64,000 nt of DNA. Source: an uncultured Alphaproteobacteria bacterium (GTDB taxonomy: Bacteria; Pseudomonadota; Alphaproteobacteria; ATCC43930; CGMCC-115725). This document shows, piece by piece, positions 3,314 through 26,274 of this stretch (its first letter is position 1; the number at the start of each line of letters is the position of its first letter). The notes under the pieces are model-generated. The model was not told the DNA's origin, made no database searches, and saw nothing but the letters and a program-made list of their open reading frames with translations. A program made the position numbers and the translations under genes. The stretch spans positions 5,721 to 69,720 of the forward strand of contig CAVTLC010000048.1 of NCBI GenBank assembly GCA_963735445.1, written 5' to 3'.

Positions 3314-3442
3314 AGTTCGAACCGCTCGGGGCCTCTTGTCGTTCCCCCCACAGTTAGCAGGTTTGAGCCTTATACCAAGCTGATTAATTGCTGATCCCTT
3401 CAAGCCAGGGATAGCAGCACAGCGAGTCAAGCGGCTATCCCT

Positions 3443-3788: not shown

Positions 3789-4934
3789 TCAATAGTCGCC
3801 TCCGAGGCCATCATGATCCCGCCACTTGTTGTGCCCGCATTCTCGCCTTCGTATGCTGGCCGCATCGCGTTCTTGTAGAATCACCGTCTGACGAGCCCGC
3901 GGATGAGCTGCGCGAGTTCGGGGTGCGAGAACAGCGACGCTGTATTTCAGTTCCACGAGGCCGCGGCCACCGGCGCCGAGCTTTTCGGCCCCACAGCGAT
4001 CGTCCAGGATACTCGACAGAGCCTCAACCCATTCGGTGTGCGTCGTTGCTGCGAGGCCGAATTCGGCTTGCGCCAGAATGTCTTTGTTCATTCCCACCGG
4101 CGACGCCACGCAGGGACGTCCGGCAGCCATGTATTGCAGCATCTTAAAGCTGCACTTGCCGCGCTCCCACGGGCCGTCCGCGAGCGGCATGACGCCAATC
4201 GTGAGCGAGCCCAGAAACTCGTCCTCGACGGCAGCCGACCACGGAACGTAACGGACCGGCAAACCGGGAAGCCGCGGCGGTCGCTCGCTGCACACGGCGA
4301 TTGACACCGCGGGGAAGCGGCGGGTCACCTCGGCCAGCGCTGGTGCTATATGCTCGAGATACCGCAAGTTGCCAAAGGAGCCGATCCAGCCGATGCATGG
4401 CAGTTCAGGAAGCGGTTGAACATGATACGATTCGGTGTCAACCGGCGTCGGCAAAACCTCGACCCTTGTGTTCCATTTCTGCCACGCCTCGGCAAGCCAA
4501 TTGTTCCCGACGACGACAAGATCGGCTCGCTCCGCGAGGTGTTTGGCGGCCCACCCATCGCGGAACAAATGGATGGCATCGTCGACGTCGATCAGCCGCG
4601 GGCGGCGTGTCAAACCTTCGAGGGTGTACAGGGTCGAGACCATCTCGCGGTGCAAGAGGGTGATATCGGCGGCCCATCCGGCGTAGATCTGAGGCAGGCG
4701 CTGCGTCAGCGACCCGAGCAGCCAAGCCGGGCGTGCCCATTGCTTTTCGGGAGGATAGGAGCCGAGGCTCGGGCTGAGCTCGACGACATCAATGCCCCTT
4801 TGCGCCAACAGCGGGATGTATTGCCGCACGCGGAAGCGCGCCGAAGGGGCTTTGGCGCCGCCGGTAAAGGCCGCCAACCGCAACCCCGGCAATGCGGCGG
4901 GAGGTTTGCCGATCCCCGCGGATGGTCGCGGCAT
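3789..4934 (-). CDS. glycosyltransferase family 4 (GT-B, group 1)
   Basis: 381-aa ORF with GT4-like architecture and a C-terminal sugar-donor motif region (GVMPLADGPWERGKCSFKMLQYMAAGRPCVASPVG). The last ~40 codons run antisense into the IS remnant, so the native C-terminus may be altered. Confidence 0.8.
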   Translation of the reverse strand: MPRPSAGIGKPPAALPGLRLAAFTGGAKAPSARFRVRQYIPLLAQRGIDVVELSPSLGSYPPEKQWARPAWLLGSLTQRLPQIYAGWAADITLLHREMVSTLYTLEGLTRRPRLIDVDDAIHLFRDGWAAKHLAERADLVVVGNNWLAEAWQKWNTRVEVLPTPVDTESYHVQPLPELPCIGWIGSFGNLRYLEHIAPALAEVTRRFPAVSIAVCSERPPRLPGLPVRYVPWSAAVEDEFLGSLTIGVMPLADGPWERGKCSFKMLQYMAAGRPCVASPVGMNKDILAQAEFGLAATTHTEWVEALSSILDDRCGAEKLGAGGRGLVELKYSVAVLAPRTRAAHPRARQTVILQERDAASIRRRECGHNKWRDHDGLGGDY

Positions 4935-7047: not shown

Positions 7048-9153
7048 TTATTTGGCTAAATGCTCGCTGCTCTCTGTCTGCTGGTTCAGACGATGCGTTG
7101 CGAACGTGGGAAGACGTCGCAACTCGGTGGTGACTTTTCTTATCGGGGCCGTGAGGCGCCAACTTCTCGAACATTTGAGCTCGTCTATCGCCCGCGTCAA
7201 CGACGCTACCTCTTTCTCGCGCTCGGCGAGCCGCAACGCAAATTCGGCCCGTTCTTTCACGATCGTCTCGATCTCGCGCTCGCGCTCGGACAGCCGCTCG
7301 GCGCGGAAACGCGCGTTGCCTGCGGCGCGAATGCTGTCGGCTGCCTCACACAGCAAATTGAGCGCCATTCGAGCCTCAGCCGAGGGCAGCAGCGGCTTCG
7401 CGTCCAACGCGCGGGCAAAATCCGCCACCGCCCCCACCGGGTTGTCCTGGCGGGACCGCGCCACGCCGCGCTGGGCAAACGCACGTGCCACGGTCGCGGG
7501 TTCTAGCTCGGTAAATTCAAGTTCGGGCGGCAGTTTGTTGGTCGCGGCGAGAATTCGATCAAATACCGCCTCGGCGCCGGCGCTGTCACCCGCGATTAGC
7601 GCGGCGATGCCGTCGTTCAGCACGGCCTGCCAGTAAATCGCGGTTTGCGCCACGACCCCTAACCGCATCGCCCCGGCGATCGCGACGTATGCCGCGCGAT
7701 AAAGACGGCGCGCGCCAGCTGGGTCGCCGCGCCCGTTCAGCTGCAGCATGCCGACAAAGTGCAAGCTGAAGGGCAGCCAGTAAGGAAGCTTGACAGGCCA
7801 ATCGGCGAGATCAGTGACCTCTGCGAGGAGGGCCGGGACCCGTTCCGGCTCGGCAAAACTCAACCTGTAGTCTTGCTGCAACAGCTCCTCGGCGGTCGCA
7901 AACACCGCTTCTGCGCGCGGCCAATCTCCCCGTGATACGTAGTGATCGAGCAGGCGGTAGACGGCGCCGTGCCGGACATCGGAGCGCAAAGGCTCGCGAT
8001 CCGCCGCCAGCGCTTCGAGATACGTGGCGTAGGCCGCATAATCCGGTTCGAGGGTCGCCTCCGTTACAATCGGATCATCGCTCGCAAACGCGATCAGCCG
8101 ATGCCCGAAGGGGATAATTTTTGTATGCGCAAAACCCGCCCCGTGAAGTGCGGCGCGCAACGCATCAGCGCTGAAGATCTGCCGATGAAACCCGGGACAA
8201 AGCGCCGACATGATCACAATCGCCGGAGCGCTGTGGCCGGGCGCAACGCACCCGGCATCCGGAGTGGTCAGGGCCAACACACCGCACGGCTGCAGATGAC
8301 CGCGCAACATGCGCAGAAAGCGCGCCGGATCTTCGACGTGCTCGATCACCTCGGAACAATAGAGCAGATCTGCGCGCATATTTTCAGGTAGCGGCGCATC
8401 GCTCAGATAGGCCGGCAGGATCTCGACACCGAGGGCGCGCGCTCCGTCCTGCGCATACGCCGACGGATCGAGCCCGAGCGATCGCGCTCCAAATATGCGG
8501 CGTGCGAAGTCGACCGTGTAACCAAAGCCGCATCCAGCATCGACAAAACTCTGAACGGGTCGCAATCGATGCACCGCCACCAGCGGCCGTATCATGAATT
8601 CGATCCCGGCCCAGAACTGGGCGTGCAGGCGGGCGTAATTGGCGTTTCCGAAATCTTCTTCGTATCTCGGTTGAATGAAGGGATGCGGGAACACGCAGCC
8701 GCAATCCGGGCAACCGTAAAAATTGAGAGCCTGACTGACGCTCGCACCGCCATCGGATGCGTCGAGATCCCAAGAACATCTGACCTTGAAGGGTTTCGGC
8801 CCGAAGGCATCGCAGACCGGGCAGACGGTCTCGACCGGCTCCTTGAGCCCCCAGCGCAACAGTCCCGGAGCGGCGGGAGCTGCTTCGGCGACCGAGGGTG
8901 TTGCCGCCGCCGGACGCTCGCCGGCGTACATGACGGTTGCGGCCTCCATCAGCAGCCGGTGAGCATGATTGCGGGCACCCTCGGTTGCGCTCGGCTTTGC
9001 CATGAAATCGGCAAAGGCGCCGATCGCCTCCGGATAATGACCGAGCTGCAGCATCGCCACTGCCCGTTCAAACGCGACGCGCGCCGCGATCAAAGGAGGC
9101 GCGAACTCCCAAATCGCCGCCAATCTCGCGCGGGCGCGCGGAAATCGTGTCAA
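7048..9153 (-). CDS. class I SAM-dependent methyltransferase with Cys4 zinc ribbon, helical (TPR-like) region and C-terminal coiled coil
   Basis: Zinc ribbon CPVCDAFG...CPDCGCVF. SAM motif I VDAGCGFGYT, then LLYCSEVIEHVEDP. C-terminal heptad-rich stretch REREIETIVKERAEFALRLAEREKEVASLTRAIDELK followed by SRSWRLTAPIRK. The ORF start overlaps the upstream paralog by 86 nt; an internal ATG at 9054 would remove the overlap. Confidence 0.8.
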   Translation of the reverse strand: MTRFPRARARLAAIWEFAPPLIAARVAFERAVAMLQLGHYPEAIGAFADFMAKPSATEGARNHAHRLLMEAATVMYAGERPAAATPSVAEAAPAAPGLLRWGLKEPVETVCPVCDAFGPKPFKVRCSWDLDASDGGASVSQALNFYGCPDCGCVFPHPFIQPRYEEDFGNANYARLHAQFWAGIEFMIRPLVAVHRLRPVQSFVDAGCGFGYTVDFARRIFGARSLGLDPSAYAQDGARALGVEILPAYLSDAPLPENMRADLLYCSEVIEHVEDPARFLRMLRGHLQPCGVLALTTPDAGCVAPGHSAPAIVIMSALCPGFHRQIFSADALRAALHGAGFAHTKIIPFGHRLIAFASDDPIVTEATLEPDYAAYATYLEALAADREPLRSDVRHGAVYRLLDHYVSRGDWPRAEAVFATAEELLQQDYRLSFAEPERVPALLAEVTDLADWPVKLPYWLPFSLHFVGMLQLNGRGDPAGARRLYRAAYVAIAGAMRLGVVAQTAIYWQAVLNDGIAALIAGDSAGAEAVFDRILAATNKLPPELEFTELEPATVARAFAQRGVARSRQDNPVGAVADFARALDAKPLLPSAEARMALNLLCEAADSIRAAGNARFRAERLSEREREIETIVKERAEFALRLAEREKEVASLTRAIDELKCSRSWRLTAPIRKVTTELRRLPTFATHRLNQQTESSEHLAK

Positions 9154-10459
9154 AGACCGCGATGGCCTCTTCCCGTCGCGCGGCCGCCAAGAGCGCGCAG
9201 CCGTGTTCCATAGCGGCGCGCCATACCAGCGAGGCAGCCTCTTGGCTGTGCTCCGGGGCGATGGCTACCGCGTGCTTCAGCACCTCTAAGGACGAAGCGA
9301 AAAGATCAACGGGATCGCGTGACCCGTCACCGTTGGCGCGCTCAGCCATGGCCCAGTAAAACAAAAATGGCCCGAGGCAAAAGGGTGCTGTGTCGCAATA
9401 CTCCGAGAGGTCGCGTGCAGCCAATACGCGCTCGGCGACGGCAGCGGTGTCGAGCGGGTCGTAGCCGTAGGCCTGTTGGACGAGCGTCGCGAACGCCTCC
9501 GCGTGCGGCAATGCCTGCTGCGTTTGGCCGGCATTGACCAGCTCCTTGGCCGCCCGGAACCGGAAACCCAGCGCAAGGTCGATCGGCTGATCCCGCAGTT
9601 CGGCACGCTGCAAGACATAATCACGATATCGCCTGCTCGGCACCTCCCTGGCGGGCCAGACGCGCAGCACCGCTTCGGTGGCAAACGCAACCAGACGCTC
9701 ATTTTCCGCCTCCACCGATACATCGGTAAACCCGGCCGCGCGGAGCAAAGTGTCCAGGGCAGCTGCGGAAAAGATGAGCTTGTGACCCCCCGGCGAAAGG
9801 GCCGCGAGCAACAATGTCGGATCGCTCTCGGGGCGCACGAATTCCGCCCGCGGGGTTGTCAGGACGAGCGTCCCTCCGGGCGTTAGATGAGCGCGCAGTT
9901 CAGCGATGAAAGCGGCCGGATCAGGCACATGCTCAACGACTTCGGAGGACAGTACGATGTCAAAGCGCTTGTCGCCCAGTTCGGCGACATCGGTCAGCAA
10001 CGCCGTGTAAATCGGCGCTGCGAGTAGATCACGTCCCAAGCGGCCATACAGGGAGGGCTCGACCCCGGCGACGGCGGCCCCGGTCATTCTCCGCCAATAA
10101 TCGAGCGTAAACCCGAAACCACAGCGGACATCGAGGAGACTGGGGGTGACGCCATCGGTTCGAACCCGTTCGATCGGCAGCACCATCGAGTCGATGCTGG
10201 CGCCGACGTGCAGGTAGTGGCGCCAGTGGTAAGGGTCGAGTTCGTCCTGGTCGGCATATTCGTTAAAGTGTTCGGTCATCACGTTCAGACTACCGCAGGC
10301 ATTGCAGCGGGAATAGCTGACAAGCTCACCGAGGTCGTAAGGGTTCGGAGCGGTGAGCACGCGTTCTTGGTGGCCGACGACACCGCATGCCCGACAATAC
10401 GCCTCGCTCACAATTTCCTTATTGCGGTACCAGGTCACCAGCGATCGGAATGTGTCCAC
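9068..10459 (-). CDS. class I SAM-dependent methyltransferase with N-terminal zinc ribbon and C-terminal helical domain (paralog of 7048..9153)
   Basis: Zinc ribbon CRACG...CNACGS. SAM motif I LDVRCGFGFT, then IVLSSEVVEHVPDP and GGTLVLTTP. Domain order matches the downstream paralog, but the coiled-coil tail is missing. Confidence 0.8.
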   Translation of the reverse strand: MDTFRSLVTWYRNKEIVSEAYCRACGVVGHQERVLTAPNPYDLGELVSYSRCNACGSLNVMTEHFNEYADQDELDPYHWRHYLHVGASIDSMVLPIERVRTDGVTPSLLDVRCGFGFTLDYWRRMTGAAVAGVEPSLYGRLGRDLLAAPIYTALLTDVAELGDKRFDIVLSSEVVEHVPDPAAFIAELRAHLTPGGTLVLTTPRAEFVRPESDPTLLLAALSPGGHKLIFSAAALDTLLRAAGFTDVSVEAENERLVAFATEAVLRVWPAREVPSRRYRDYVLQRAELRDQPIDLALGFRFRAAKELVNAGQTQQALPHAEAFATLVQQAYGYDPLDTAAVAERVLAARDLSEYCDTAPFCLGPFLFYWAMAERANGDGSRDPVDLFASSLEVLKHAVAIAPEHSQEAASLVWRAAMEHGCALLAAARREEAIAVFDTISARPREIGGDLGVRASFDRGARRV

Positions 10460-12993: not shown

Positions 12994-13848
12994 GTGACAC
13001 AACTGGAAGCTGTTTCTGAGCCTGCACCCGAGACAATTATTGATTTCCCGGCACCGCCAACCCGCGTCGGTTCCGCTGTGGCAGACCTCCGCGATGGTTT
13101 TGAGCAGAATTGGCTGTGGATTCGGCTGGCGCACCAGGATATGCGGCTGCGCTATCGTGGTTCGATGCTCGGACCGTTTTGGCAGACGATCACGACCGTT
13201 GTTTTGATCGGCTCGATGGGTTTCATCTACGCCAAGCTGTTCCATGTCGAACTCAAAGACTACATGCCGCTGCTGACTGTCGGGCTGATACTGTGGAATT
13301 TCGTTGCCGGAATGATCACCGAAGGCTGCGGCACTTTCGACGCAGTGCGCGGGCTAATCCAGCAGGTCAAGCTGCCGTATTCGCTGCACGCCTTTCGCCT
13401 CGTCTATCGCAATTTCCTAATCCTGGCTCACAGCTTTGTCATCATCCCGATCGTACTGATCATCTTCCCGCACCCGATCCAATGGCTTCGGCTGGTTGAG
13501 ATCGTCCCCGGTATGGTGTTGGCAATGATCAATGGGGTTGCCATCAGCCTACTGTTGGGCTCGATTTGCGCGCGCTTCCGCGACGTCCCGCCGATCGTCG
13601 CCAGTATCGTTCAGGTCGTGTTCTTTGTGACGCCGATCGTCTGGCCGCCTAGCGCGCTGGGCTCCAACCAGTGGTGGGCGGTGCTGAACCCGCTTTATAC
13701 AGTGATCGACGTGATGCGCTCGCCGATGCTCGGGATGCCGACAGCGCCGCATTCCTGGGCAATCCTGATAATCGTCACACTGGTCAATTGTGCGGTCAGT
13801 TTCATGTTCTTCAGTCGCTTCCGCTCGCGCATCGCCTTTTGGGTTTGA
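12994..13848 (+). CDS. wzm: ABC-2 type polysaccharide export permease (Wzm/TagG/KpsM family)
   Basis: 284-aa ORF with a GTG start. Family N-terminal signature LAHQDMRLRYRGSMLGPFWQTI and about 6 TM segments. Lies directly upstream of the ATPase gene. Confidence 0.85.
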   Translation: MTQLEAVSEPAPETIIDFPAPPTRVGSAVADLRDGFEQNWLWIRLAHQDMRLRYRGSMLGPFWQTITTVVLIGSMGFIYAKLFHVELKDYMPLLTVGLILWNFVAGMITEGCGTFDAVRGLIQQVKLPYSLHAFRLVYRNFLILAHSFVIIPIVLIIFPHPIQWLRLVEIVPGMVLAMINGVAISLLLGSICARFRDVPPIVASIVQVVFFVTPIVWPPSALGSNQWWAVLNPLYTVIDVMRSPMLGMPTAPHSWAILIIVTLVNCAVSFMFFSRFRSRIAFWV

Positions 13849-13869: not shown

Positions 13870-14655
13870 GTGTCGTTTGTGCGTCTAGAAGACGTATCGG
13901 TGGAGTTTCCGATATATCAGGGCAGCAGCCGCTCGCTGAAAAAAGTGCTGCTTGCCTCATCCACTCGCGGGAATTTGGCGCGCGATGCCCGAGACCGCGT
14001 AAACGTCCGCGCCCTGAGCGGGATCAACTTTGAACTGCGCAGTGGTGATCGGTTTGGCCTCGTCGGTGCAAACGGCGCCGGGAAGACGACATTACTCAAA
14101 GTGCTCGCCGGCGTATTCGAGCCCACCGGCGGTAGGATAATTTCGTTCGGCCAAGTCACATCTCTGCTCGATACCAGCGTCGGGTTGAACATCGATGCGA
14201 CCGGGCACGAGAATATCATTCTGCGTGGCATGTACATGGGGATACACCCGCGCGAAATGGCGGAGCGCGCGGCATCGATCGCCGAGTTTACCGAGCTTGG
14301 CGACTACCTTGACATGCCGGTGCGAACATATTCCGCGGGTATGATGATTCGCTTGGCCTTTGCTATTTCAACGTGCGTTGCCCCCGATATCCTGATCATG
14401 GACGAGTGGCTCACCGCCGGCGATGCTCGGTTCCTCGCTAAGGCGCAGCGCCGCATCGAAGAGTTCGTTCGCTATTCGAGCATCCTGGTGCTCGCCTCCC
14501 ATTCGATGCAGCTGGTGGAACAATGGTGCAGTCGCGGGGTGTTGCTGCATCACGGCCGAATATTGACGATTGGCCCGATCAAGGAGATTGTCGCTGCCTA
14601 TCAAGAGTTGACCCAGGAGCTCACCGCTATGGAGGCTGTGGCGGCGGCCGAGTGA
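13870..14655 (+). CDS. wzt: polysaccharide export ABC transporter ATP-binding protein (Wzt/TagH/KpsT family), NBD only
   Basis: 261 aa. Walker A GANGAGKTTLLKVLAG, signature YSAGMMIRLAF, Walker B ILIMDEW. No C-terminal carbohydrate-binding extension. Confidence 0.9.
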   Translation: MSFVRLEDVSVEFPIYQGSSRSLKKVLLASSTRGNLARDARDRVNVRALSGINFELRSGDRFGLVGANGAGKTTLLKVLAGVFEPTGGRIISFGQVTSLLDTSVGLNIDATGHENIILRGMYMGIHPREMAERAASIAEFTELGDYLDMPVRTYSAGMMIRLAFAISTCVAPDILIMDEWLTAGDARFLAKAQRRIEEFVRYSSILVLASHSMQLVEQWCSRGVLLHHGRILTIGPIKEIVAAYQELTQELTAMEAVAAAE

Positions 14656-15173: not shown

Positions 15174-15832
15174 TTGGCTGAAATCAACCTGCTGCGCCGA
15201 TATCCGCGCGCAAAGCGCAACATCGGAATGCGAACAGTCGCACAAAGCGCTGAGAACATCCGTATCGCTCGTGAGTATGGACGCGAATATTTCGACGGGT
15301 CGCGCGACACCGGATACGGCGGTTACCGTTATGATGGGCGATGGATCCCGATTGCCGAGGATATAATCGAGCACTTCCGGCTCAAACCGGGCGATCGGGT
15401 GCTCGAGTCGGCTGCGGCAAAGGTTTTCTCGTCAAAGACCTGCTTAAGGTGAGCCAAGGAATTGAGGCTTTCGGGCTCGATATTTCCGAATACGCGTTGA
15501 TGCATTGCGAACCTGAGGTCATCGGCCGGCTGCACCTTGGCGACTGTGTCAAGCTGCCGTTTCCAGACAACAGCTTTGCCGCGACCATCGCGATCAACGT
15601 CGTCCACAATCTTGAACGCGCCGATTGCATTGCGGCTGTCAAGGAGATCGAACGGCTGTCGCCTGGAAGGGCCTACATTCAAGTCGATTCCTATCGCACG
15701 CCGGAGGAAAGGCAGCTTTTTCTCAGTTGGGTTCTAACCGCAAAGACGCATCACGATCCCGTAGGCTGGCGCCAACTGTACGAGGAAGCGGGTTACACGG
15801 GCGATTACTATTGGACAATTATCGAGGCATGA
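15174..15832 (+). pseudogene. class I SAM-dependent methyltransferase with one frameshift (possibly a sequencing artefact)
   Basis: ORFs 15174..15452 and 15341..15832 join as ...KPGDRVLE|VGCGKGFLVKDL... The DNA reads ctcgag-tcggctgc where gag gtc ggc tgc is expected, so one G is missing near 15406. Confidence 0.8.
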
Positions 15833-15845
15833 GAGGCTCGGAGCG

Positions 15846-16667
15846 ATGACGCCAACCGGCAACCGGTTCGATACGATACAGGCGCGCGAGCGATGCCGGC
15901 GCTATCGTCGCCGCATCCTCGACATCTCGCAGCAGGTGCAGGCGCTCCATATCGGATCGGCTTATTCCTGCACCGAGATCGTAGACTCCTTTTATCATGG
16001 GCTGATGCGACGTAATCCGGACGGCTCCTCGCCCGACACTTTTTGATGTCGAAAGGGCATGGCTGCATGATCCAGTACGTCATCCTCGAGGAGGACGGGA
16101 TCCTGAGCCGCGCAGATCTCGATGGCTACTGCAAACCGGAAGGACATCTCGGCGTCCACCCCACTATGGCATTCCCGGCATCGCGGCAGCCACCGGATCG
16201 CTCGGCCATGGGCTCTCGATGGCGTGCGGCATGGCACTCGCAGAGCGCGGCCGCAGGACCGGCGGCACAATCTATGCCGTGCTCAGCGATGGCGAAGTAC
16301 AAGAAGGCTCAACCTGGGAAGCCGTACTGATGGCGTCGTCGCTGCGTCTCGACAATCTCGTCGCCGCAATCGACAACAACGATCTGCAGAGCCTCGGTCG
16401 GACGTCGGTAACTCATCCGAGCCTCTATCCGTTGCTCGATAAATTTGCGGCGTTTGGCTGGGAAACAGCAGAGGTCGCGGCCACGACTCGGACGCAATCT
16501 TTTCCGCTGTCGCGAACCGGCGCGGCGGCCGCCCCTTCATGTTGGTTGCAAAGACCACCAAGGGCAAGGGCGTCAGCTATATGGAAAACGTGTCGATCTG
16601 GCATTACCGCTCGCCAACTCCGGACGAATACCGCCGTGCGATTGACGAGTTGGAGACGGCGCGATGA
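15846..16667 (+). pseudogene. transketolase N-terminal (TPP-binding) subunit with three frameshifts
   Basis: The pieces read HIGSAYSCTEIV..., LMSKGHGCMIQYV..., HYGIPGIAAATGSLGHGLSMACGMA...LSDGEVQEGSTWEA... and GHDSDAIFSAV...LVAKTTKGKGVSYMEN. Frame switches lie at a T5 run (about 16040), a C4 run (about 16160) and about 16475. The stop overlaps the next start (ATGA at 16664). Confidence 0.8.
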
Positions 16668-17581
16668 GAAACATGTTCGCCGAAGCGCTGTATCGCGAAG
16701 CGACCCGAAACCCGGACATCTATGTGGTCGTCGCCGACATCTCGCCGGTCGGCAATATGGCGAAGTTTAGTTCGGAGTACCCCGAGCGCTTTATCAATGT
16801 GGGAGTTGCCGAACAGAGCATGATTGGTATCTGCGCCGGGCTCGCCCTCAAAGGCTGCCAGCCCTTCGCCTACACGATTGCCACCTTCTCGCTCTATCGA
16901 CCGTTCGAGATGGTGCGCGACGATCTGTGTTACCAGAACCTGCCGGTGACGGTTGTCGGCATGGGCGCCGGGGTGATTTATTCGGACCATGGCGGGACCC
17001 ATCATGCGATGGAGGACGTCGCAATCGCCGGCGCTATCCCGAATATGCAGATTATTGCGCCATGCGATCCAGCGGAGGTCGCCGAGGCTACGCGATGGTG
17101 CGCCCGTCAAAAAAACGGGCCGGTCTATCTCCGCCTTGGCAAGTCGAACGAACCCGACCTGACCAAGAATGCCGAACCGTGGGTGTTTGGCAAATTGCGC
17201 CGCTTGCGGAGCCGGTAGAGATGTCGCAATCATGTCCTATGGCGTCTTGACCAGCATCGCAACCGATCTTGCCGATCGCTTTGCAGCGGCGGGAAAATCG
17301 GCATCGGTATTCTCCTGCCACACCGTGAAGCCGCTCGACCGTGACGGGATTATCGCCGCAATGAAAGATCATGACCACGTCGTCGTGATCGAGGAGCATG
17401 TGCCGCAGGGCGGTCTCGCGGCGCAGACGAAGCAGTTGGCCTGGGACATCGGGGCACATTGCCGGCTCGACACCTTCACGCTGCAGGACCGCTTTACCAT
17501 AATTTCGGCCGTCATCCCGACATGCTGGCGGCGCACGGGCTCAGCCTCTCGGAGATTGTGAAGCGGGTCGGGCTGGACTAG
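16664..17581 (+). pseudogene. transketolase C-terminal (pyrimidine-binding) subunit with two frameshifts
   Basis: FINVGVAEQSMIGICAGLALKG...YSDHGGTHHAMEDVAI..., then AGRDVAIMSYGVLT..., then HNFGRHPDMLAAHGLSLSEIVKRVGLD*. Frame switches near 17205 and 17500. Confidence 0.8.
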
Positions 17582-17586
17582 CGGCG

Positions 17587-18956
17587 ATGGGAGAGGGGCA
17601 CAACGATAGGCTTGCGATCCACGGCGGCGAGCCCGTTCGCCGAAAGCGGATGCCGCCGCGTTTGGCGCTCGGCGACGACGAAGTGGGCATGATCCAGCGG
17701 GTTATCGCATACTACCGCGATAACGAGATCGACCCGGGTTACCAGGGGCCGTTCGAAAGCTCTACACTGACGGTTTTGTCGGAATGATGGGAGGCGGCTA
17801 TGCCGATGCCGTCGCCACCGGAACCGCTTCGCTGTTTGTAGCCTTGGCCGCGCTCGATCTTCCCAAAGGCAGCCAAGTGCTGATCTCGCCGATTACCGAT
17901 CCGGGTTCGCTGAGCGCCATCATCCCAAACGGGTTAACGCCAAAGCTGTGCGACAGCAAGCCCGGTAGCTACAACATCGGAGTCGAGCAGGTAGTGGCGC
18001 GGCTGACACCCGAGGTGTCGGCGATTTGTCTGGTGCATGCCGCCGGGCAGGCGGCCGAGGCTGACAAGATTGTGGAGGCGGCCCATGCCCGCGGGGTGCG
18101 GGTGCTCGACGACCCGAGTCAGGCGCACGGCGCCAAGATAATGGGCCGCCCGGTCGGCACCTTCGGCGACATTGCCGCGTTCTCGACGATGTATCGCAAG
18201 GCGCACATGATCGGCCCATCAGGGGGTGTGGTCTATTGCCGCGATCTCGACCTTTTTCGCCGGGTGCTTGCCCATGCCGACCGGGGCAAGCCGCGCTGGC
18301 GTGATGATTTCAGTGATCGCGACCCATCGACCTATCTGTTCCCGGCACTTAATCACCATACCGACGAGATTTCGTGCGCGATCGGGGTCGCCTCGTTGGG
18401 GCGTCTCGAAAATACGATTACCCGGCGGCTCTCTTACGTGTCGGATGTTGTAGCCGGTCTCGCCGAAAGTGCTCGGATCTGCCGACCCTATCCGATGAGC
18501 CCAAACAATTCTCCATTCTTCTTTCCAATCATCGTCGACCTTGACCGCATCAGCTGCAGCAAGATCGAGTTCACCGAAGCGGTTCTGAAGGAGGGAATCG
18601 ATCTTAACCCGCACTACCGCTTTGTCGTGGACGAGTGGCCCTGGGTGCAGCCCTATCTTGCCGATGAATTTAAGACCGACAATGCCCGCAATATTCGCGA
18701 TCGTTCCTTTTGCCTTTATCTGAATGAGAACTACGGCGAGGCTGAAGCCAACGACACCGTCGAAGCGATTCTTAAGGTCGAGCGCCATTTCGGTCTTGAT
18801 TGGCGGGTTAATTCGGTCCTCTCGCTCTCGAGGATTCAGTCAACGTTAAGCTCCCGAGCCTGGGCGGGGAGCCTGGACGTCGAGGGTATGCCCTCGCGTC
18901 TGGCGCTCGGAATGTCGAAGCGCGCATGGCGCAGCCACGGTGGTTTACCGCGATAG
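17587..18956 (+). pseudogene. DegT/DnrJ/EryC1/StrS-family sugar aminotransferase with one frameshift; the 3' end runs into a relic
   Basis: IHGGEPVRRKRMPPRLALGDDEV...DPGYQGPFE then (K)LYTDGFVGMMGGGYADAVATGTASL... The shift lies at the run ttcgaaagctc (AAA where AAAA is expected, about 17757). The last ~30 codons belong to the duplicated 5' relic. Confidence 0.8.
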
Positions 18957-19056: not shown

Positions 19057-20934
19057 ATGAACCGGCAGCCGGCAAGAGTTATTGTGTATGCGTGGGGCAA
19101 GTCCTACGTCGATCGAATGCTCAATAATGCGGTGGCCTCACTCCTTGCGCCTGGTAATCTGCCTGCTCTAGCCGGGTTCTTTGATTGCACATTGATTGTG
19201 GTGACAGAAGAAAAGCTGTTTGGCTATGTCAATTCACATCATTTGATTCGATGGACTAAATCTCTGTGCCCGGTTCGGCTGATTTCGCTTGACGATCTTA
19301 TCGGCGAGCCTTGGCAATATGGAATTTCGCTGGCCCATGCTCTGTTTCGCGGCTTCTCCGAGCTCGGGGCCGCAATGACCGAGACGTATCTGTTGTTTCT
19401 GAATGCCGATTTTGTTTTAGCCGATGGCTGCTACGAGCGTCTAATCCCGCATATGGAACGCGGCGAATCGGTCCTGCTGTCGCCAAGCTATTGCGTGGTC
19501 GAGGAGGAGGTTGAGCCAATCCTCAGGGAGATAAGCGACAGCAGAAGGCGCGCTTTGGTGCTCCCGCCACGCCAACTCGCTCGCGTCATCATCGATCATC
19601 AGCACAACACTATTCGCGCCAAAACAATCAATCAACAACAAGTCCATTTCGAATATATGGACCAAGCATATTGGAGGATCGATGACGATACGATCATCGC
19701 TCATCAGATGCCAATATCTGTGGTAGCGATGCGGCCGGAAACGGCGCTTACCGATATTAATACCTTTTGGGATTGGGGCATTGTCTATGAGTTCTGCCCG
19801 TCGCGGCGGCTCACAGTGCTCAACGATTCCGATGAATTCCTGATGCTGGAACTGCGGAACGAGGCCGCACATCGCGACCTCGTGCGGCCCGGGCCGACCA
19901 ATCCGCAGGCCGCCGCTGCGGGAATGCGCGGCTATATCACGCAATACCAGCTCGACAACGCTCGCTTTGGCCTGACCTTGCATGCCCAGACGCTGCCGTC
20001 TGCGATCGACGAGGCGCGAGCGAGTTTGCGTTTGTTTTCTGATGAGCTCCTGCGGCAACTGCAGGGCCATGTGCCCGACCACCTTAATCACCCGCAATGG
20101 ATTTACCATCGCTGGCATCTGTCGCGACACATCGCGGCGAGCAAGTTGCGCAACGAGATCGCCTCGCTCGTGGAGAGCAGCTACAAAGCGCAGGCCCGGA
20201 CCGCAAAGATGCAGACCGGCGCGCTGATGATGCTAGCCGCGACGAAGGCCTCGCGGTTTGCCGCGATCCGCGGCCAACGCGGCGATGGTATCGCCGATAT
20301 GCCCGCTGCTGCTGCCGTCGAGCAAGGCCGGGGAGCCGCTGACGCAGTGCTCGCGATTGCCAAGGAATTCGTCCGTGATGCGGAGCTTCTAGAGCCGACT
20401 TTCGAGGAATGGGCCCGATCGACGGGCCATTATCAGGTGCACGAGGCGTCACTGCGCCGGCAACTCCGCCGGATCGAACAGCGCCGAGTTCTGACCTGGG
20501 CTGATTTGGGGTTTTGCGGGGTGCCTGGGACTCGACCCACGAGCGGCGAATCCGAGGGACCGGAACCGGCAATTTGGACGCGCAGGCGATGGATCAAGAT
20601 TCTAAAGGCAGCCCGTGCGTGGACGCTCGGCTCCGTCCCACATACCCGTCGGTGGCATCCCTTGCACTTTATCTGTAAGGACATCTCCAGGGTGCTCGAC
20701 GGCGCCGTTCACGCCAGCGGACCGCTTCTTTTCGTAAGCGGAGACAACAGCATCGCCACCCGCTGGGTAGATCCCGCGCGGCGCCGGCATTTACGCGTCT
20801 CCGCGGCCGGTGTACTGGAGGGGGCGTTGGATGGGCTCGCCAGCTCGGTTCAGTTGATTTCTGCTTTGTCGAGCTTGATAGCGAGAGCTTCCCGCGCATC
20901 CGCGATGTTCATGGCATTTTGGCTGACCGTGTAA
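19057..20934 (+). CDS. large protein with an uncharacterised GT-A-like N-terminal module (paralog of the N-terminus of 23311..26274) and a helical C-terminal half
   Basis: 625-aa ORF. Blocks shared with the paralog: WG.SY...SLLAPGNLP, LFLNADFVLADG, RGESVLLSPSYCVVEEE, HNTIRAKTIN, YWRI, EFCPSRRLTVLNDSDEFLMLEL. I recognise no characterised family. Confidence 0.7.
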   Translation: MNRQPARVIVYAWGKSYVDRMLNNAVASLLAPGNLPALAGFFDCTLIVVTEEKLFGYVNSHHLIRWTKSLCPVRLISLDDLIGEPWQYGISLAHALFRGFSELGAAMTETYLLFLNADFVLADGCYERLIPHMERGESVLLSPSYCVVEEEVEPILREISDSRRRALVLPPRQLARVIIDHQHNTIRAKTINQQQVHFEYMDQAYWRIDDDTIIAHQMPISVVAMRPETALTDINTFWDWGIVYEFCPSRRLTVLNDSDEFLMLELRNEAAHRDLVRPGPTNPQAAAAGMRGYITQYQLDNARFGLTLHAQTLPSAIDEARASLRLFSDELLRQLQGHVPDHLNHPQWIYHRWHLSRHIAASKLRNEIASLVESSYKAQARTAKMQTGALMMLAATKASRFAAIRGQRGDGIADMPAAAAVEQGRGAADAVLAIAKEFVRDAELLEPTFEEWARSTGHYQVHEASLRRQLRRIEQRRVLTWADLGFCGVPGTRPTSGESEGPEPAIWTRRRWIKILKAARAWTLGSVPHTRRWHPLHFICKDISRVLDGAVHASGPLLFVSGDNSIATRWVDPARRRHLRVSAAGVLEGALDGLASSVQLISALSSLIARASRASAMFMAFWLTV

Positions 20935-21486
20935 TACCGGGCGGCGGCATCGTGATCTGTTGGATCAATTCTGCGTGCCAATCGGCCGAGACCCTACAGC
21001 AAGCCTTCGGCGATTGCGCCGCGATGCAGAGCCAGGGCGCGGCGGTACGGTTTTATTCCTCTGTCTCAGGCTGGGGCGGCCTCGCAGCGGCGCGAGCTGC
21101 ATCCGAACAAACTCGGCTACGTCGACTTACCCGGCTGGGCGCCGGCCTAATGACCAATATTGTCGATTTTGGTCGGCACCGCCCGATTGAAGGTCCTACC
21201 CCGCTGCCCTATTGCTGGGGCGCTATTATCGAGATCGGGGTCTACGGTCGCGCTGGCATAGCCTCGCAGCATCTGTCGCCTGCCGTGATGGTAAATCCCT
21301 CGACCCAGTCGGCCCAGATGGGCGCGTCGCTCTGATGAAGAGGTCGGCGCGCTGTTTCGATCGCCGGAGCCGACGAAGGCGCCTTAGTGTCACCGCACCA
21401 AACGGCGGCGCTGCTGCAGCCGCATGCGGATTGGGATGTTTGCGTCTAGCGGCGGGTCTCGGCGATAGTGTCATCGATGGCCCGCG

Positions 21487-21888
21487 TTAAGCTGGCCCGT
21501 TCCTGAACGACCGATCCAGTTGTGGTTCGGCCGCGGTGACTTGCTCGCTATTTATGCGATCGCTGTCGGCCTCTTGCCGCGGCAGCACCGCGGCGAGCTG
21601 TCGCTGCAACTCGGCGGCGCGCATCCTCTGCTCCCACGTCTCCACACGCGCGGCTTCGAGTTCGCTGGCGTCGCGGGCTCGGCCCAGGCGAAATGCGTGA
21701 TCGGCTTCGGAAAGCTTGCGCGCAGCTTCGCGCGCTCGGCCACGCTCCAGGTCAAGTTCTTTAGCTAACTTCGCCCGCTCGGCGACTAACTGCTCACGGT
21801 GGCGATGATCGGCAACCTTAATGACGACATATCCGGCGGATTCGATTATCCGCAAAATGCGCCCCTTTATAGCCGTAGTCAGATGCAT
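21487..21888 (-). CDS. hypothetical coiled-coil protein
   Basis: 133-aa ORF rich in heptad-like E/R/A/L (AERAKLAKELDLERGRAREAARKL...). A shifted frame would extend it to 21446 with QERASLTRAIDDTIAETRR. Confidence 0.45.
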   Translation of the reverse strand: MHLTTAIKGRILRIIESAGYVVIKVADHRHREQLVAERAKLAKELDLERGRAREAARKLSEADHAFRLGRARDASELEAARVETWEQRMRAAELQRQLAAVLPRQEADSDRINSEQVTAAEPQLDRSFRNGPA

Positions 21889-22313
21889 TTCCGACGTGCG
21901 CTCCCGCTAGATGGCTCGCGGCGAGTAATCGGGCAGAGGACCAACAAGATTCTCCTTATCCTAAACGTACTCGCATCAACCTCGTGACCTAAACAGTGCT
22001 CGCCATTTGCGACCGAGTAAGGAGTGGTTGACGAGCCGATTAGCTCACGCTAGCCCCTGGGACAAGAGTTCCGAAATCCCATTCGCTCTGAACTATCACT
22101 TCGGCTGGCACTTGTAAAATACTGTGAGCTTCACGTGCCGGCACCAAAGGCATAGATTAATTCAACGCGCAAAATCGTTTTCAATAATGCAAGTTAGCGA
22201 TACACTGGATGATCGCATTGCCGAAAATCGGCGATGACGCACTGGAGTAAGGCCAGCACGGGCGCGGATGGCGGCAGGAGCCGAAGCGGCCAAGGTGGTA
22301 GGCGGGCATCGCG
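21889..22313. promoter_or_regulatory. visibly AT-richer intergenic region upstream of the rmlD-like / large-GT operon
   Basis: No credible ORF. Composition is clearly less GC-rich than the flanks (for example ttcaataatgcaagttagcgatacactgg). Sits between divergent genes. Promoter inferred only. Confidence 0.3.
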
Positions 22314-23273
22314 ATGGCCGATAGGAAATTGCTGATCTTGGGAGCCTCTGGACTTATCGGCTCGACGCTCATCCAAGCTTGGCACCCGCGGCCGCTGGTC
22401 GCCACTTATCTAACGCGACCGATACCCGATGGGGTATTCTTCGACCTCTCGCGAGAACGTCTGAAAGATCGCATTCTCCGGCGCGGTCACGGCTTCACCC
22501 ATGCAGTTTTGGCTCAGGGCATCTCCAAGCTCGAAACCTGTGCCCGCTTGCGCGCGACCACGACCGCGATCAACGTCACCGCTTCTTTGCAGGCGATTGA
22601 TGATCTGCTCGAAGCGGGTGTGCATCCGATCTTCCTGTCGAGCGATGCCGTCTTTGATGGTAGCTCGGGGCTGCGGACCGAGGCGGAGAAACCACGCCCA
22701 ATTCTGTCCTACGGCCGTGACAAATACGTAGTTGAGACTTACCTGACCGGGCAGGCCGCGCCGTCGACGATTCTGCGCCTGACCAAGGTCATCGCCGGGT
22801 TCCCCGATTATCGCAACCCGCTGAGCCAGTGGTTGAGCGATATCGAATCTGGTCGGACGATCCGATGCGCGATCGATCAGATGCTTACACCGGTCGATGC
22901 CGACTATGTCACGCAGGCGATCCTATTTTTTATCGCGACTGGAATAGAGGGCGTATTTCACATATCGGGACCCGAGATGATCACGCGTTATGCACTGTTG
23001 CAGCGGCTTTTAGAACAGATGCCGCCGCCTCTGCGACGCGGTGCCATCGTGCGGCCCTGTCCGCTCGATGAGTTTGCTACATTTGGCAAACTGCCGCTCA
23101 ATTGTGCTCTGTCCAATGCCAAATTTGTTGCATTATCGGGCCTGATACCGCGCTCGATCGACCAGGTCTGCGACGAACTCTGCGCCCGCGTATTTTCGCG
23201 GCCCGATTGCCTGGCCGGTGAGATGCCCGGCGTCGGAGATGTTTCCAGTGAGGCAGGCCCGTTCACCGACTAG
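22314..23273 (+). CDS. NAD(P)-dependent sugar-nucleotide reductase/epimerase (RmlD-like substrate-binding family)
   Basis: 319 aa. N-terminal Rossmann motif KLLILGASGLIGSTL. The SYGRDKY segment fits the SDR catalytic Y-x3-K. Length and context fit dTDP-4-dehydrorhamnose reductase-like enzymes. Confidence 0.75.
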   Translation: MADRKLLILGASGLIGSTLIQAWHPRPLVATYLTRPIPDGVFFDLSRERLKDRILRRGHGFTHAVLAQGISKLETCARLRATTTAINVTASLQAIDDLLEAGVHPIFLSSDAVFDGSSGLRTEAEKPRPILSYGRDKYVVETYLTGQAAPSTILRLTKVIAGFPDYRNPLSQWLSDIESGRTIRCAIDQMLTPVDADYVTQAILFFIATGIEGVFHISGPEMITRYALLQRLLEQMPPPLRRGAIVRPCPLDEFATFGKLPLNCALSNAKFVALSGLIPRSIDQVCDELCARVFSRPDCLAGEMPGVGDVSSEAGPFTD

Positions 23274-23310
23274 CGGGACATATTTCAATCAGGGCCTAGA
23301 ACGAAGCGCG

Positions 23311-26274
23311 ATGGGATTTTCGAAAGCGACCGCAAGGCATCGTATTCGCATGCTGATTCCCCTTTGGGGAGCGCGTTATTACGAACAATGGTTTAGCCTT
23401 GCCGGCCCGTCGCTACTCGCCCCCGGCAACATCCCCTACCTCAATGAGCATGCCGAATTTGAACTCGTGTTCCTGTGCAAGAGCCAGGATCATCAGTTGT
23501 TTCAAACAAATCCAATGCTGCGTGAGCTAAGTGCTCAATTTCACGTAAAAACGATAACAATCGACGAGTTTTTTCCGCAGCGACAATCGGTTTCCTACAG
23601 CGTGCCGCTGACGCTCGCCTTCGCGAAAGGCATTCATGATCTTGGGCCAAATGGGCTTGGCACCTTCATAATCGAGATGAATGCCGATTTTGTGCTGTCT
23701 GCAGGCTCTCTGGCAGCGGTATTGGAGCGCATCGATCGGGGCTACCACATCATTTCGGCGCCGAGCCTGCGGGTGGTGGAGCACGAGGCGCGGCCGCTTT
23801 TCGAACGGCATTTGCGGGAGCATGGCAACGACAGCTTTTCCGCTCGCGCAATGATGGCGATCGCCGAGGGTCATCTTCATCAGACAGTGCGCGGCCGCAC
23901 AATCAATCGCGACCAGCTTGTCGAAGCTTGGTATTACCATATTGTGTATTGGCGGCTGACCCCAACCTGCCTTGCCGCACGATCTTTTTTGCTGCAGCCG
24001 CTGTGCTTCCAGGTGCGCCGGCAAGCCGAAGCCGTGGTCTGCTCGCACGATTACGGTTTCCTGCAGGAATATTGCCCCGGCGGACGCTATACCGCGATCG
24101 GCGACTCTGATGAGTTGCTGATGATCGAACTTCAGGCGCGCGATTCGGAGGCGGAATTGCTCGAGCCGGCGCTGCATTTTGCCTCATCCTCGGACGCGCT
24201 CGAAAATCGCATTTCGAAGATTATTGCGAATGCTGCAGAATGGAGTACTGCCGAGCATCGCCGTGCGTTTAGCTACCCATTGCTCTTCCACTCTGTAGAC
24301 CTGCCGGCGGATGTTGGGGAGCGACTGGGCGAATTCGATTGGCAGATGGCCCGCGTTGCGGAGAGTCTTCCACCGCCGGCTTCGGCAATATGTCATTTCC
24401 AGTGGCTCGCCGGTCTGCACGTTTACCGCGCCGCGATGTCTGAGGACGGGATAACCGATTATCCCGATATGATCGACGCCGACGCCAATAGAATAATTTC
24501 TAGTCTCTTTGAAATTGATGCTGCGACAGCGGCCAATCTGCGGCCACAATGGATTGCTACCGCCACCGCGGATCGGCCGGACATTCTTGTTGAAACTCTG
24601 TCACGGAGCTCTGCTGTCGTCACATTGGACGGGCTAATCAATGAAGTGTGGGAGATGGCTCCGTCGGCGCGAATTTTCTCGATCGCGATCGAGGAGCTTC
24701 ATAGTCCGGATCGCGCAACGACATTCGAGTTGCCGAAACACGAGTATGAGCCGGGGCGCAGGCTGTGCATATATCTACTGATCGCTTCGCTCCCGCATTG
24801 GGGTAAGCTGCGGAACATCTGTGATACGTGCTTGGCAGCCGGCGGACTGGTGCAGGTTGTATTCCGTGAGCAAGACTGGGCGCTTGTTCAACTGCGTCAG
24901 GGTGCAAATGCGTGGATGTTGTCTGAGCTCGAACGCAATTTCCCGACGGAGCAATATACGGCATCGATCGCGCTAGTCCCTGCGACGCCGAATTGCGGAC
25001 ACCCTTTAGAGCCGGCTTCGCACTCAGGGCCATTCACGTGTCGAGGGTTTATTGTCAGTCTCGGGAGTCGCGAAAACGGCTCTGCGGCCGTCCGCCCGCA
25101 GCCGAAACCCGCGGTAAGCAATCGGACCAAGGATTTGACGGCGGTGGTCCCGACGCTCAATCGCGTCGGTTCGTGCGTTGCGCTGGTCCGATTTCTGCAC
25201 TATTGTGGGTTTGAGCATCGCATTGTTGTTGCCGATTCGAGCTCTCCGGAGCAGGCTGATATATTGCGCAGCCGGCTCGCAGGCTTGGCTGATTATCAAT
25301 CATACGATTACGGTTTGCCGCAATATCAAAAAATGGCGCAGATCGCGCGCTCGGTGGATACTCCCTATATCGTCCTACTGCCCGATGACGACATCCTGTT
25401 TCCGCACGCGATCGCTGCCGCGCTCTCTCATCTGCAACAGCACCCAACCCACGCGGCCGCTCATGGATACAGTTTGCGCTTTGGATTAGAGCGAGGCGAT
25501 TTCGACATTTATCAAGTCGAACATTTCATCCCAACGATCGACGATGACGACCCGATGTGGCGATACGCTTACCTGATGCAGCGTTACCAGCCGCATATTT
25601 GGGCGGTATTTCGCACCGAAGTGTATGCCGAGGCGATGACGGCAGCAGCGAGGATGCCGGGTACGTTATTTCAGGAATTGATGTTTCAGATAGTTTCAAT
25701 CCTTAGGGGACCGGTGGCGCGGCTCCCCTTGATCTATGCGATGCGCGGGATGGAGACGTCCCATGCCGAGTACAGCGAGGTCGATCCGTTTCAGTGGCTG
25801 CTCAAAGACGCCCAATCCTTTGGTCGAAGCTATGGCATATTTCGTGAAGCAGTTGCTGCTTATCTCGATAAGCAAAAGATCGGACTGAACGCGGGGCCCG
25901 GCGCTAGACTTGAGCTGCCCCTGCCTGATCAGCCGGCATCGATGAAAAGCGCGCCAAAGGTTTCGCTGGAACAGGTACTTGATCTGATAAACGCGAGTTA
26001 CCTGGCGCGCATGGTCGATCTTGGTAAAATCAATCACGCGGTAGGTTATCATCTCGGACGCGTCGCCGAGCCGGTAAGGTTTCCCGGACCGTGGGCCGGC
26101 TGGAGCGAGCCGCGACCAGGCGATCTGGTGCGTCCTTCCGGACGCCTTGATCGACGTTACATCTGGCGGGAGGCGGTGCAACAAGCAGAGCCGAAAAGCG
26201 AGATCATGATCAGATTGGAGGAGATTGAGCGGGTCGAAACCGAACTCGACGGCTATGTCTTGGAAAGACCATGA
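23311..26274 (+). CDS. multidomain putative glycosyltransferase: uncharacterised GT-A-like N-terminal module, central region of unknown function, C-terminal GT2-like domain
   Basis: The ORF opens at 23218, but the ATG at 23311 (MGFSKATARHRIRMLIPLWG) avoids overlap with the upstream gene. The N-terminal module is paralogous to 19057..20934 (SLLAPGNIP, EMNADFVLSAG, HIISAPSLRVVEHE, HQTVRGRTIN, EYCPGGRYTAIGDSDELLMIEL). The C-terminal domain reads LTAVVPTLNR...IVVADSS...YIVLLPDDDILF (DxD-type GT-A). Confidence 0.75.
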   Translation: MGFSKATARHRIRMLIPLWGARYYEQWFSLAGPSLLAPGNIPYLNEHAEFELVFLCKSQDHQLFQTNPMLRELSAQFHVKTITIDEFFPQRQSVSYSVPLTLAFAKGIHDLGPNGLGTFIIEMNADFVLSAGSLAAVLERIDRGYHIISAPSLRVVEHEARPLFERHLREHGNDSFSARAMMAIAEGHLHQTVRGRTINRDQLVEAWYYHIVYWRLTPTCLAARSFLLQPLCFQVRRQAEAVVCSHDYGFLQEYCPGGRYTAIGDSDELLMIELQARDSEAELLEPALHFASSSDALENRISKIIANAAEWSTAEHRRAFSYPLLFHSVDLPADVGERLGEFDWQMARVAESLPPPASAICHFQWLAGLHVYRAAMSEDGITDYPDMIDADANRIISSLFEIDAATAANLRPQWIATATADRPDILVETLSRSSAVVTLDGLINEVWEMAPSARIFSIAIEELHSPDRATTFELPKHEYEPGRRLCIYLLIASLPHWGKLRNICDTCLAAGGLVQVVFREQDWALVQLRQGANAWMLSELERNFPTEQYTASIALVPATPNCGHPLEPASHSGPFTCRGFIVSLGSRENGSAAVRPQPKPAVSNRTKDLTAVVPTLNRVGSCVALVRFLHYCGFEHRIVVADSSSPEQADILRSRLAGLADYQSYDYGLPQYQKMAQIARSVDTPYIVLLPDDDILFPHAIAAALSHLQQHPTHAAAHGYSLRFGLERGDFDIYQVEHFIPTIDDDDPMWRYAYLMQRYQPHIWAVFRTEVYAEAMTAAARMPGTLFQELMFQIVSILRGPVARLPLIYAMRGMETSHAEYSEVDPFQWLLKDAQSFGRSYGIFREAVAAYLDKQKIGLNAGPGARLELPLPDQPASMKSAPKVSLEQVLDLINASYLARMVDLGKINHAVGYHLGRVAEPVRFPGPWAGWSEPRPGDLVRPSGRLDRRYIWREAVQQAEPKSEIMIRLEEIERVETELDGYVLERP

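Follow-up and report, generated by a model that had tools for sequence, protein, structure and literature searches.

WbdA, WbbM, WbbB and ORF6 (open reading frame 6) of the Klebsiella pneumoniae O7 locus are large cytoplasmic proteins encoded in wzm/wzt loci. They unite several catalytic modules, separated by helical or coiled-coil spacers and sometimes accompanied by methyltransferases. The modules known from such enzymes of ABC (ATP-binding cassette) transporter-dependent O-antigen assembly belong to GT4, GT2, GT99, GT111 and similar glycosyltransferase families. GT137 is represented by K. pneumoniae O4 ORF7, a CMP-Kdo-dependent terminator, in which methyltransferase-like beta/alpha/beta domains are followed by helical elements and no similarity to GT-A or GT-B is seen (PMC11231755). 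Here we describe a window of 64,000 nucleotides from an uncultured alphaproteobacterium (contig CAVTLC010000048.1), in which two proteins of a wzm/wzt locus, encoded by ORFs A and B, share an N-terminal module. Judging from sequence comparison and structure prediction, we consider it likely that this module is the catalytic domain of an unclassified family of GT-A-fold glycosyltransferases acting in Wzm/Wzt-dependent surface-glycan assembly.

ORF A (19057..20934, plus strand, 625 aa) and ORF B (23311..26274, plus strand) are present where the original prediction had placed them. ORF B encodes 987 aa when counted from the ATG at 23311. The longest ORF opens at a GTG at 23218, and the ATG at 23350 (residue 14), at which many homologs begin, may be the real start. 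BLASTP aligned residues 3-279 of A with residues 9-287 of B (79/284 identical, 28%; 49% positives; E=1e-33). This similarity is far above chance, and the rest of A and B gave no further BLASTP alignment (next best E=0.96). All six motif blocks that had been read by eye from the two N-termini are seen in the alignment. The module is ~335-345 aa long and ends at a conserved HPxW motif, by which the end previously proposed for the B copy, 24350, is roughly correct. A tblastn search found A and B to be its only copies in the window:

19057..20091, plus strand: GT-A-like module of ORF A, residues 1-345 (BLASTP against B, family alignment, AlphaFold, Foldseek)
23311..24330, plus strand: GT-A-like module of ORF B, residues 1-340, a divergent paralog of the A module

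The motifs of the A module are WG (13-14), LLAPGNLP (29-36), N116-A-D118-F, P143-S, H183-NTIRAKTIN, D202-Q-x-Y-W, W238-D-x-G, D257-S-D-E and, at the end, HPQW. In 36 members of the family N116, D118, F119, P143, H183, Y205, D239, P248, S258, D259, E265 and T295 (A numbering) are invariant, and so are W13-G14, P32, N34 and D79 in those members whose N-terminus is present. D202 is nearly invariant among A-type members and is replaced by His in B. The blocks NAD, H(N/Q)T, YW and DSDE, first noticed in the two window proteins, are by these invariant residues signatures of the whole family.

A GT-A-like fold had been suggested for the module, with AlphaFold and Foldseek named as the check. The AlphaFold model computed from the 36-sequence alignment has a pLDDT of 93.6 and a pTM of 0.91. 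At E<=1e-3 Foldseek returned 180 PDB matches to it. Each of the 50 best is either a GT-A glycosyltransferase or a nucleotidyltransferase from the same superfamily (probability 0.87-1.0, E from ~1e-5 to 1e-6). The GT-A neighbours include SpsA, K4CP, RmlT, AvpGT, BcsA, LARGE1, ColGalT1, UGGT, WrtF and PcManGT. Among the top 50 matches in BFVD, which holds predicted viral structures, those with names are nearly all GT-A glycosyltransferases. BFVD also supplied the sole full-length structural relative found: the uncharacterised protein A0A6J5PWU5 of an uncultured Caudovirales phage (342 aa) aligns with the module over its full length (TM 0.83/0.81, rmsd 3.4 A over 346 columns; 19% identity, E=1e-28). 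The module is therefore a self-contained fold unit of ~340 aa. The check thus yields a high-confidence prediction of a GT-A / nucleotide-diphospho-sugar transferase fold, of remote kind.

GT-A enzymes carry a DxD motif right after beta4, which binds the metal and the diphosphate. In the module N116-A-D118 directly follows strand 111-116 (DSSP), at the end of beta4, and aligns with the DxD part of PF00535. This is also the place to which sequence searches point. PF00535 matches residues 106-145 of A with its profile positions 76-116, the DxD region (E=0.0018; 18.7 bits against a gathering threshold of 23.3). When the 36 members were scanned singly, it was the sole recurrent Pfam family, being the top match, sub-threshold, in 17 of them (best E=1.3e-4). 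A distant two-module protein (P0222) reaches 26.6 bits, above the 23.3 cut-off. The NCBIfam search with the module gave nothing relevant. As no above-threshold Pfam, NCBIfam or PDB sequence match was obtained and public names read 'hypothetical protein', the description of the module as uncharacterised is borne out. GT2 was tried as its family, the measure being a match over the domain above the Pfam gathering threshold; the 18.7 bits of A cover 40 residues and the B module has no such match, and filing the module under GT2 was therefore dropped for this window.

The exporter genes expected from the original prediction lie in the same locus, where they define the assembly pathway:

12994..13848, plus strand: wzm, ABC-2 permease (Pfam PF01061)
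13870..14655, plus strand: wzt, ABC ATPase of 261 aa without an extra C-terminal domain (Pfam PF00005)

Their surroundings comprise a GT2-GtrA protein (102..1259), a GT4 protein (3789..4934), two methyltransferase-TPR (tetratricopeptide repeat) proteins and an RgpF-like protein before wzm and wzt; these are followed by a methyltransferase, split transketolase subunits, DegT, A, an RmlD-like reductase and B, and then by the housekeeping gene tyrS. Further loci with the module, 74 in all, were found in contigs from one genome per species. A Wzm/Wzt pair, recognised with the window's own proteins, lies within 10 kb of the module in 11 of the 32 loci that are at least 18 kb long, often only 0.2-2 kb away, and Wzm is found within that distance in 21 of the 74. 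By a rough estimate that assumes one or two pairs per genome, the chance of meeting such a pair in a random 20-kb window is well under 1%. Two other members sit among GT2, GT4, methyltransferase, DegT and heptose-pathway genes.

The family is large. An exhaustive search of 1.84 billion representative proteins with a hidden Markov model (HMM) gave 3,534 clusters (at 50% identity) at E<=1e-3, 2,539 at E<=1e-10 and 845 at E<=1e-30. The 74 loci come nearly all from metagenome-assembled genomes (MAGs) and include Alphaproteobacteria (Xanthobacteraceae, Stellaceae, Tagaea), Betaproteobacteria, Nitrospirota, Acidobacteriota, Gemmatimonas, Myxococcaceae, Prosthecobacter and Smithella. Bradyrhizobium sp. 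STM 3843 is the one cultured strain represented; in other Bradyrhizobium strains the RefSeq name is 'hypothetical protein'. A literature search on bradyrhizose gene clusters, prompted by this member, gave nothing useful. The module is probably the hallmark of a large and unstudied family of enzymes in bacteria from soil and fresh water.

In total, 97 copies of the module were counted in the 74 loci, about 19 of which have two to four copies within 20 kb. Counted from the start of the module, members are usually 600-830 aa long, and in most (~600-800 aa) no further catalytic domain can be recognised. The fusion partners in longer members are TylF, FkbM and other SAM (S-adenosylmethionine) O-methyltransferases, SASA-type esterase domains, GT4, GT41-TPR or an additional module copy. 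The member in locus L003 has the module, a long low-complexity and helical-looking stretch (read as coiled coil by eye) and a terminal O-methyltransferase. The wzm/wzt neighbours, the tandem paralogs and the fusions (GT4, GT2, GT41, O-methyltransferase, SASA) support a role in glycan assembly.

A number of observations weigh against the reading of the module as a glycosyltransferase of such pathways. The structural matches are remote (TM 0.25-0.41, ~150 aligned columns) and cover the nucleotide-binding half alone, the 180-residue C-terminal half has no solved relative, and the best single PDB match is a nucleotidyltransferase, YngB, though with an rmsd of 15 A. The B module has no match in Pfam. 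Profile searches of PDB sequences, with the full alignment and with the trimmed module, gave chance matches only (E>=0.34). Comparison of the module profile by hhalign with the window GT2 domain (102..1259) and with the TIGR04440 domain of B gave no match, a negative that is weak because the target alignments are low in diversity (Neff 1.6-2.1). The link to GT2 rests on the sub-threshold Pfam matches, since hhalign gave none. The proposal that NADF is a DxD-like motif agrees with its position at the end of beta4, but Asn116 takes the place of the canonical first aspartate. By analogy, a DxD variant of this kind would have a precedent in a functional O-polysaccharide GT2 enzyme: in the metal-independent fucosyltransferase WrtF the motif reads G89-A-D91, and in relatives of WrtF it reads N(A/S)GD (PMC12595478). 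The co-occurrence of the module with wzm/wzt, suggested earlier as a test, is positive in the 11 of 32 long loci and negative in two thirds of them, which have no Wzm within 10 kb. Finally, one member from a cultured strain (L077 10001..11941, Bradyrhizobium, WP_316165412.1) directly follows phage-tail / GTA-like genes (Phage_tail_2, Phage_TAC_11, DUF6950, Phage-tail_3). Because of these neighbours and of the structural match to the phage protein A0A6J5PWU5, a phage link of the module, for example in host-glycan modification, is possible. A plasmid DNA search, a tblastn search of GenBank phages and a pattern scan of IMG/VR gave no sequence relatives of the module.

Some of these observations could be explained if the GT-A scaffold served a non-Leloir or non-sugar transfer (of sugar-phosphate, glycerol- or ribitol-phosphate, or another group) in a modifying or capping enzyme. 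The non-canonical N-x-D, the unique C-terminal half without solved relatives and the prevalence of fusions to glycan-decorating enzymes (TylF, FkbM, SASA) would agree with this, and the layout of the L003 member resembles chain terminators of ABC-dependent pathways (PMC11231755). However, no Pfam similarity to Stealth, LicD or TagF-type families was detected, and the named structural neighbours other than nucleotidyltransferases are all sugar transferases. We regard this explanation as unlikely, although it survives better than the next two.

The Foldseek results could also indicate a sugar-phosphate nucleotidyltransferase (RmlA/GalU-like) or another NDP-sugar-making enzyme that supplies an unusual activated sugar. 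The top PDB match is the UTP-glucose-1-phosphate uridylyltransferase YngB (E=2.8e-6), RmlA, GMPPA/B and ADP-glucose pyrophosphorylases are also among the matches, and no obvious gene of this type was noticed among the ORFs annotated in window 1-36000. The G-x-G-T-R-(x)n-K loop after beta1, however, is not found; at this place the family has R7...W13-G14-x-x-Y, and nucleotidyltransferase identity was rejected for want of that signature. The large rmsd of the YngB alignment argues in the same direction, as does Pfam, in which the sole signal is GT2 at the DxD position and NTP_transferase matches are absent. Moreover, paralogs in tandem, two to four in a locus, and fusion with GT4, GT2 or GT41 domains typify transferases, not precursor enzymes, which leaves this alternative very improbable. 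Least probable of all is a non-catalytic role, in which the module, as an inactive GT-A-like scaffold or as a domain that binds carbohydrate or lipid, organises the assembly complex while fused or neighbouring enzymes carry out the chemistry: the incomplete DxD, the His of B in place of D202 and a second domain (described below) that resembles a methyltransferase minus its SAM loop, so that pseudo-enzyme domains are perhaps a family theme, would suit it, but twelve invariant residues, mostly polar or charged, are kept down to ~25-28% identity and across several phyla, and most members, having no other catalytic domain, would be left inactive.

Glycosyltransferase activity in glycan assembly therefore remains our preferred reading of the module, and the rest of the two proteins was analysed alongside it. 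In ORF B three further parts follow the module:

24331..25134, plus strand: helical hairpin of two long helices and alpha/beta domain (AlphaFold, Foldseek; stand-alone homologs end here)
25135..25746, plus strand: GT2-type domain, residues 609-812, with LLPDDD (NCBIfam TIGR04440)
25747..26274, plus strand: C-terminal tail, residues 813-987, conserved in full-length B-type proteins only

The domain with LLPDDD, originally called GT2-like, is of genuine GT2 type: it scores 114 bits with TIGR04440 against a cut-off of 70 (E=7.9e-33), with PF00535 sub-threshold. Homologs of B fell into two groups. The first consists of eight full-length B-type proteins (970-1008 aa, 70-93% identity), one of which has been named 'TIGR00180 family glycosyltransferase [Stellaceae bacterium]' by PGAP. 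In the second are 24 stand-alone proteins of ~590-620 aa, which share 42-58% identity with B and cover its residues 1 to ~595. On this evidence B is a complete ~600-aa unit fused to a GT2 domain (TIGR04440) and a tail. The idea that B has two active sites holds at the level of architecture, in that it contains two GT-like modules (1-340 and 609-812).

What had been called a central unknown region of B is predicted to be a helical hairpin followed by a weakly methyltransferase-like Rossmann domain. The AlphaFold model of residues 330-605 (pLDDT 83.6) has two long helices and then an alpha/beta domain, for which Foldseek found class I SAM methyltransferases exclusively in the PDB, although weakly (best E=2.6e-4, TM 0.23-0.31, high rmsd). 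The glycine-rich E/DxGxGxG SAM loop was not found in the second domains, which have VVTLDGLINE in B and LLFVSGDNS in A; the family consensus at beta1 of this domain shows just L.V, and there are no Pfam methyltransferase matches to the second domains.

ORF A turned out to be interrupted. A scan of a genome collection identified a colinear locus, L001, in another uncultured alphaproteobacterial MAG (MFD02248.bin.1.118), with 94% nucleotide identity to window 12751-30000, and it was used as the reference for calling insertions and deletions (indels). Comparison with it revealed the following arrangement behind the A module:

20092..20613, plus strand: linker of ORF A, residues ~346-519, helical-looking by eye, without conservation in the family alignment
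20614..21335, plus strand: conserved C-terminal domain of ORF A, residues ~520-759 of the repaired protein (iterated HMM, conservation profile)
20850..20856, plus strand: frameshift site, TT in the window against TTT in L001, which stops ORF A at 20934

When the missing T at 20854 is restored, A is open to 21335 and encodes 759 aa, and in the L001 ortholog the reading frame stays open across the C-terminal domain. That A should end at 625 aa in a helical tail was thus an artefact of a 1-nt homopolymer frameshift. Other members from long-read metagenome assemblies are likewise broken, into ORFs of ~470 and ~210 aa, and for this reason we attribute the frameshift to an error of assembly. Alternatively, A may be a very recent pseudogene; the synonymous and non-synonymous differences behind the frameshift (3 vs 7) are too few to weigh.

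The C-terminal domain of A, which spans two reading frames in the window, has the motifs FG..P.V..HP.W, FD.C...L, RP....GG and F.G, then a hydrophobic helix and CTS.T. An iterated HMM recognised it in 72 of 78 full-length family proteins, and compared with L001 it has the highest nucleotide identity of any segment of the locus (97.2%). The linker before it differs in length and sequence from member to member. A profile search with the A-type domain against PDB sequences gave sub-threshold methyltransferase and CheY-like matches only (MraW, UbiG, E>=0.15).

Dozens of 1-nt indels relative to L001 occur in window 12846-29575, several at homopolymer runs and within genes (for example at 15407, 16040, 16162, 16477, 17212, 17497, 17756 and 20854). 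Genes that are intact in L001 but broken in the window include the methyltransferase (15341..15832) and both transketolase subunits. Between the repaired A and the RmlD-like gene is a gap of ~1 kb (21336..22313) without a long ORF on the plus strand, which has 93.7% identity to L001 and nine indels. The pattern of indels looks like long-read assembly error, and ORF-based annotation of the window is therefore unreliable.

The simple divergence of A and B after ~330 aa, as first proposed, gives way to a different picture. Both appear to be complete ~600-aa two-domain units, in which a helical linker joins the module to a Rossmann-like domain, and B has an extra GT2 domain. BLASTP of repaired A 338-759 against B 301-630 gave no match. 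Comparison of the second domains of A type and B by hhalign gave E=6e-4 at a probability of 28%, and E=0.0087, with a common FD.C..L / ..GG.V stretch, so homology of these domains is no more than weakly indicated by their sequences. The canonical form of a family protein begins with the module and continues through a helical linker into a second, Rossmann-like domain that carries a hydrophobic helix.

From homology, family membership, predicted fold, motif position, genomic context and fusions we infer the following scheme of how the module catalyses transfer, which donor it uses, what its residues do and where in the pathway it stands. The module would act at the cytoplasmic face of the membrane on a nucleotide-activated sugar. 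Its N-terminal Rossmann-like half (the beta1-WG loop, the LLAPGNLP loop and D79) would bind the nucleotide; N116-x-D118, in place of DxD, would keep the donor diphosphate in position, whether or not a metal is involved, with H183 as a candidate third ligand. The family-specific C-terminal half, with Y205, D239, D257-S-D259 and E265, could form the acceptor site and provide any catalytic base. Because the SAM loop is missing and a hydrophobic helix is present at the end, the role of the second domain is probably to associate with the membrane or with a partner, not to transfer methyl groups. The paralogs A and B most likely make different linkages of one polymer, probably differing in linkage or donor specificity, and B would bring a second, GT2-type active site.

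While the module itself is a probable new glycosyltransferase family of known fold, a broader synthesis can be offered only tentatively. It would make the module with its degenerate methyltransferase-like partner a new family of CAZy rank, with N-x-D, possibly metal-independent, and with a unique acceptor half. Such a family, widespread among uncultured bacteria of soil and fresh water (Proteobacteria, Nitrospirota, Acidobacteriota and others) and occurring in phages as well, might polymerise or cap surface glycans. The sugars of these glycans might be unusual ones, as the transketolase, aminotransferase and methyltransferase genes (elsewhere heptose-pathway genes) would make. The pseudo-methyltransferase domain might be a membrane anchor or partner recruiter, by analogy with the coiled-coil scaffolds of WbdD and WbbB. 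Taken as a whole, this synthesis is conceivable, somewhat short of an even chance.

The sugar-tailoring set of the window (15341..18956 and 22314..23273) consists of the SAM methyltransferase, the split transketolase N and C subunits, the DegT aminotransferase and the RmlD-like reductase. It suggests an unusual sugar (branched, amino or methylated) as a building block. Among the 74 related loci, relatives of transketolase C occur near the module in 13 and relatives of DegT in 17.

Colinearity with L001 begins at window position 12751. Upstream of wzm, L001 has a third module paralog (1358..3436, a 692-aa ORF, 46% identical to the A module) and an epimerase, where the window has the RgpF-like gene and the two methyltransferase-TPR genes. 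Locus content thus varies between close relatives. The two methyltransferase-TPR genes (7048..9153 and 9068..10459, both on the minus strand) are paralogs with a CxxC...CxxC pair, a Methyltransf_23 SAM domain and a helical region. The longer protein (701 aa) has TPR matches and an apparent C-terminal coiled coil terminating in SRSWRLTAPIRK. The sequence S-W-R-(I/L)-T-x-P-(L/I)-R, which follows this apparent coiled coil (7164, minus strand), is also found after the helical tail in the module-family proteins P0003, P0030 and P0069, and may be a docking or membrane motif common to glycan-assembly proteins. At the edge of the region, the GT2-GtrA fusion (102..1259, minus strand) is of the polyprenyl-phosphate glycosyltransferase type, and its close homologs are named from Stellaceae. 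Two ORFs, 2024..3313 (plus strand, 429 aa) and 5174..6562 (minus strand, 462 aa), have no Pfam match.

Should the module prove to be an active glycosyltransferase, a function would be assigned to several thousand 'hypothetical proteins' (at least 3,500 clusters), and a new family would be available for classification. The set of catalytic modules known from O-antigen and capsule assembly with ABC transporters, which is still growing (GT137 was added in 2024), would also become wider. With its invariant N-x-D and unmatched acceptor half, the module lends itself to testing how GT-A enzymes work without a canonical DxD. Another divergent GT-A family will be no surprise to the specialist, yet this one is sizeable, uncharacterised and of unusual conserved architecture. 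That architecture is masked where frameshifts split such genes, in this window and in similar long-read metagenome bins.

In comparison with known systems, B resembles WbdA, WbbM, WbbB and the O7 ORF6 protein in uniting two GT-like modules in a wzm/wzt locus, and some members of the module family likewise have coiled-coil-like spacers and terminal O-methyltransferases. The relation to WbdA, WbbM and WbbB is one of architecture, not of sequence homology. The two methyltransferase-TPR proteins of the window resemble WbdD-type terminators, at least one of them having an apparent C-terminal coiled coil (PMC11231755). Unlike the WbdD and WbbB systems, however, the window has a Wzt (261 aa) without a carbohydrate-binding module, and the logic of terminator recognition may not apply. 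GT137 is similar as a recently recognised family from the same kind of locus that domain databases left unannotated; its published description differs from the module. The phage protein A0A6J5PWU5 differs from the module proteins in that it stands alone, without linker and second domain. Four motifs of the 180-residue C-terminal half, HxT, YW, WDxG and DSDE, have no counterpart in GT2, and the position of the GT2 catalytic base cannot be mapped onto the module. What the module has in common with CAZy GT2 / PF00535 enzymes (SpsA, K4CP, RmlT, WrtF) is the predicted GT-A core, a motif at the DxD position after beta4 and an occurrence in loci of O-polysaccharide type, and among GT-A enzymes it is nearest to GT2.

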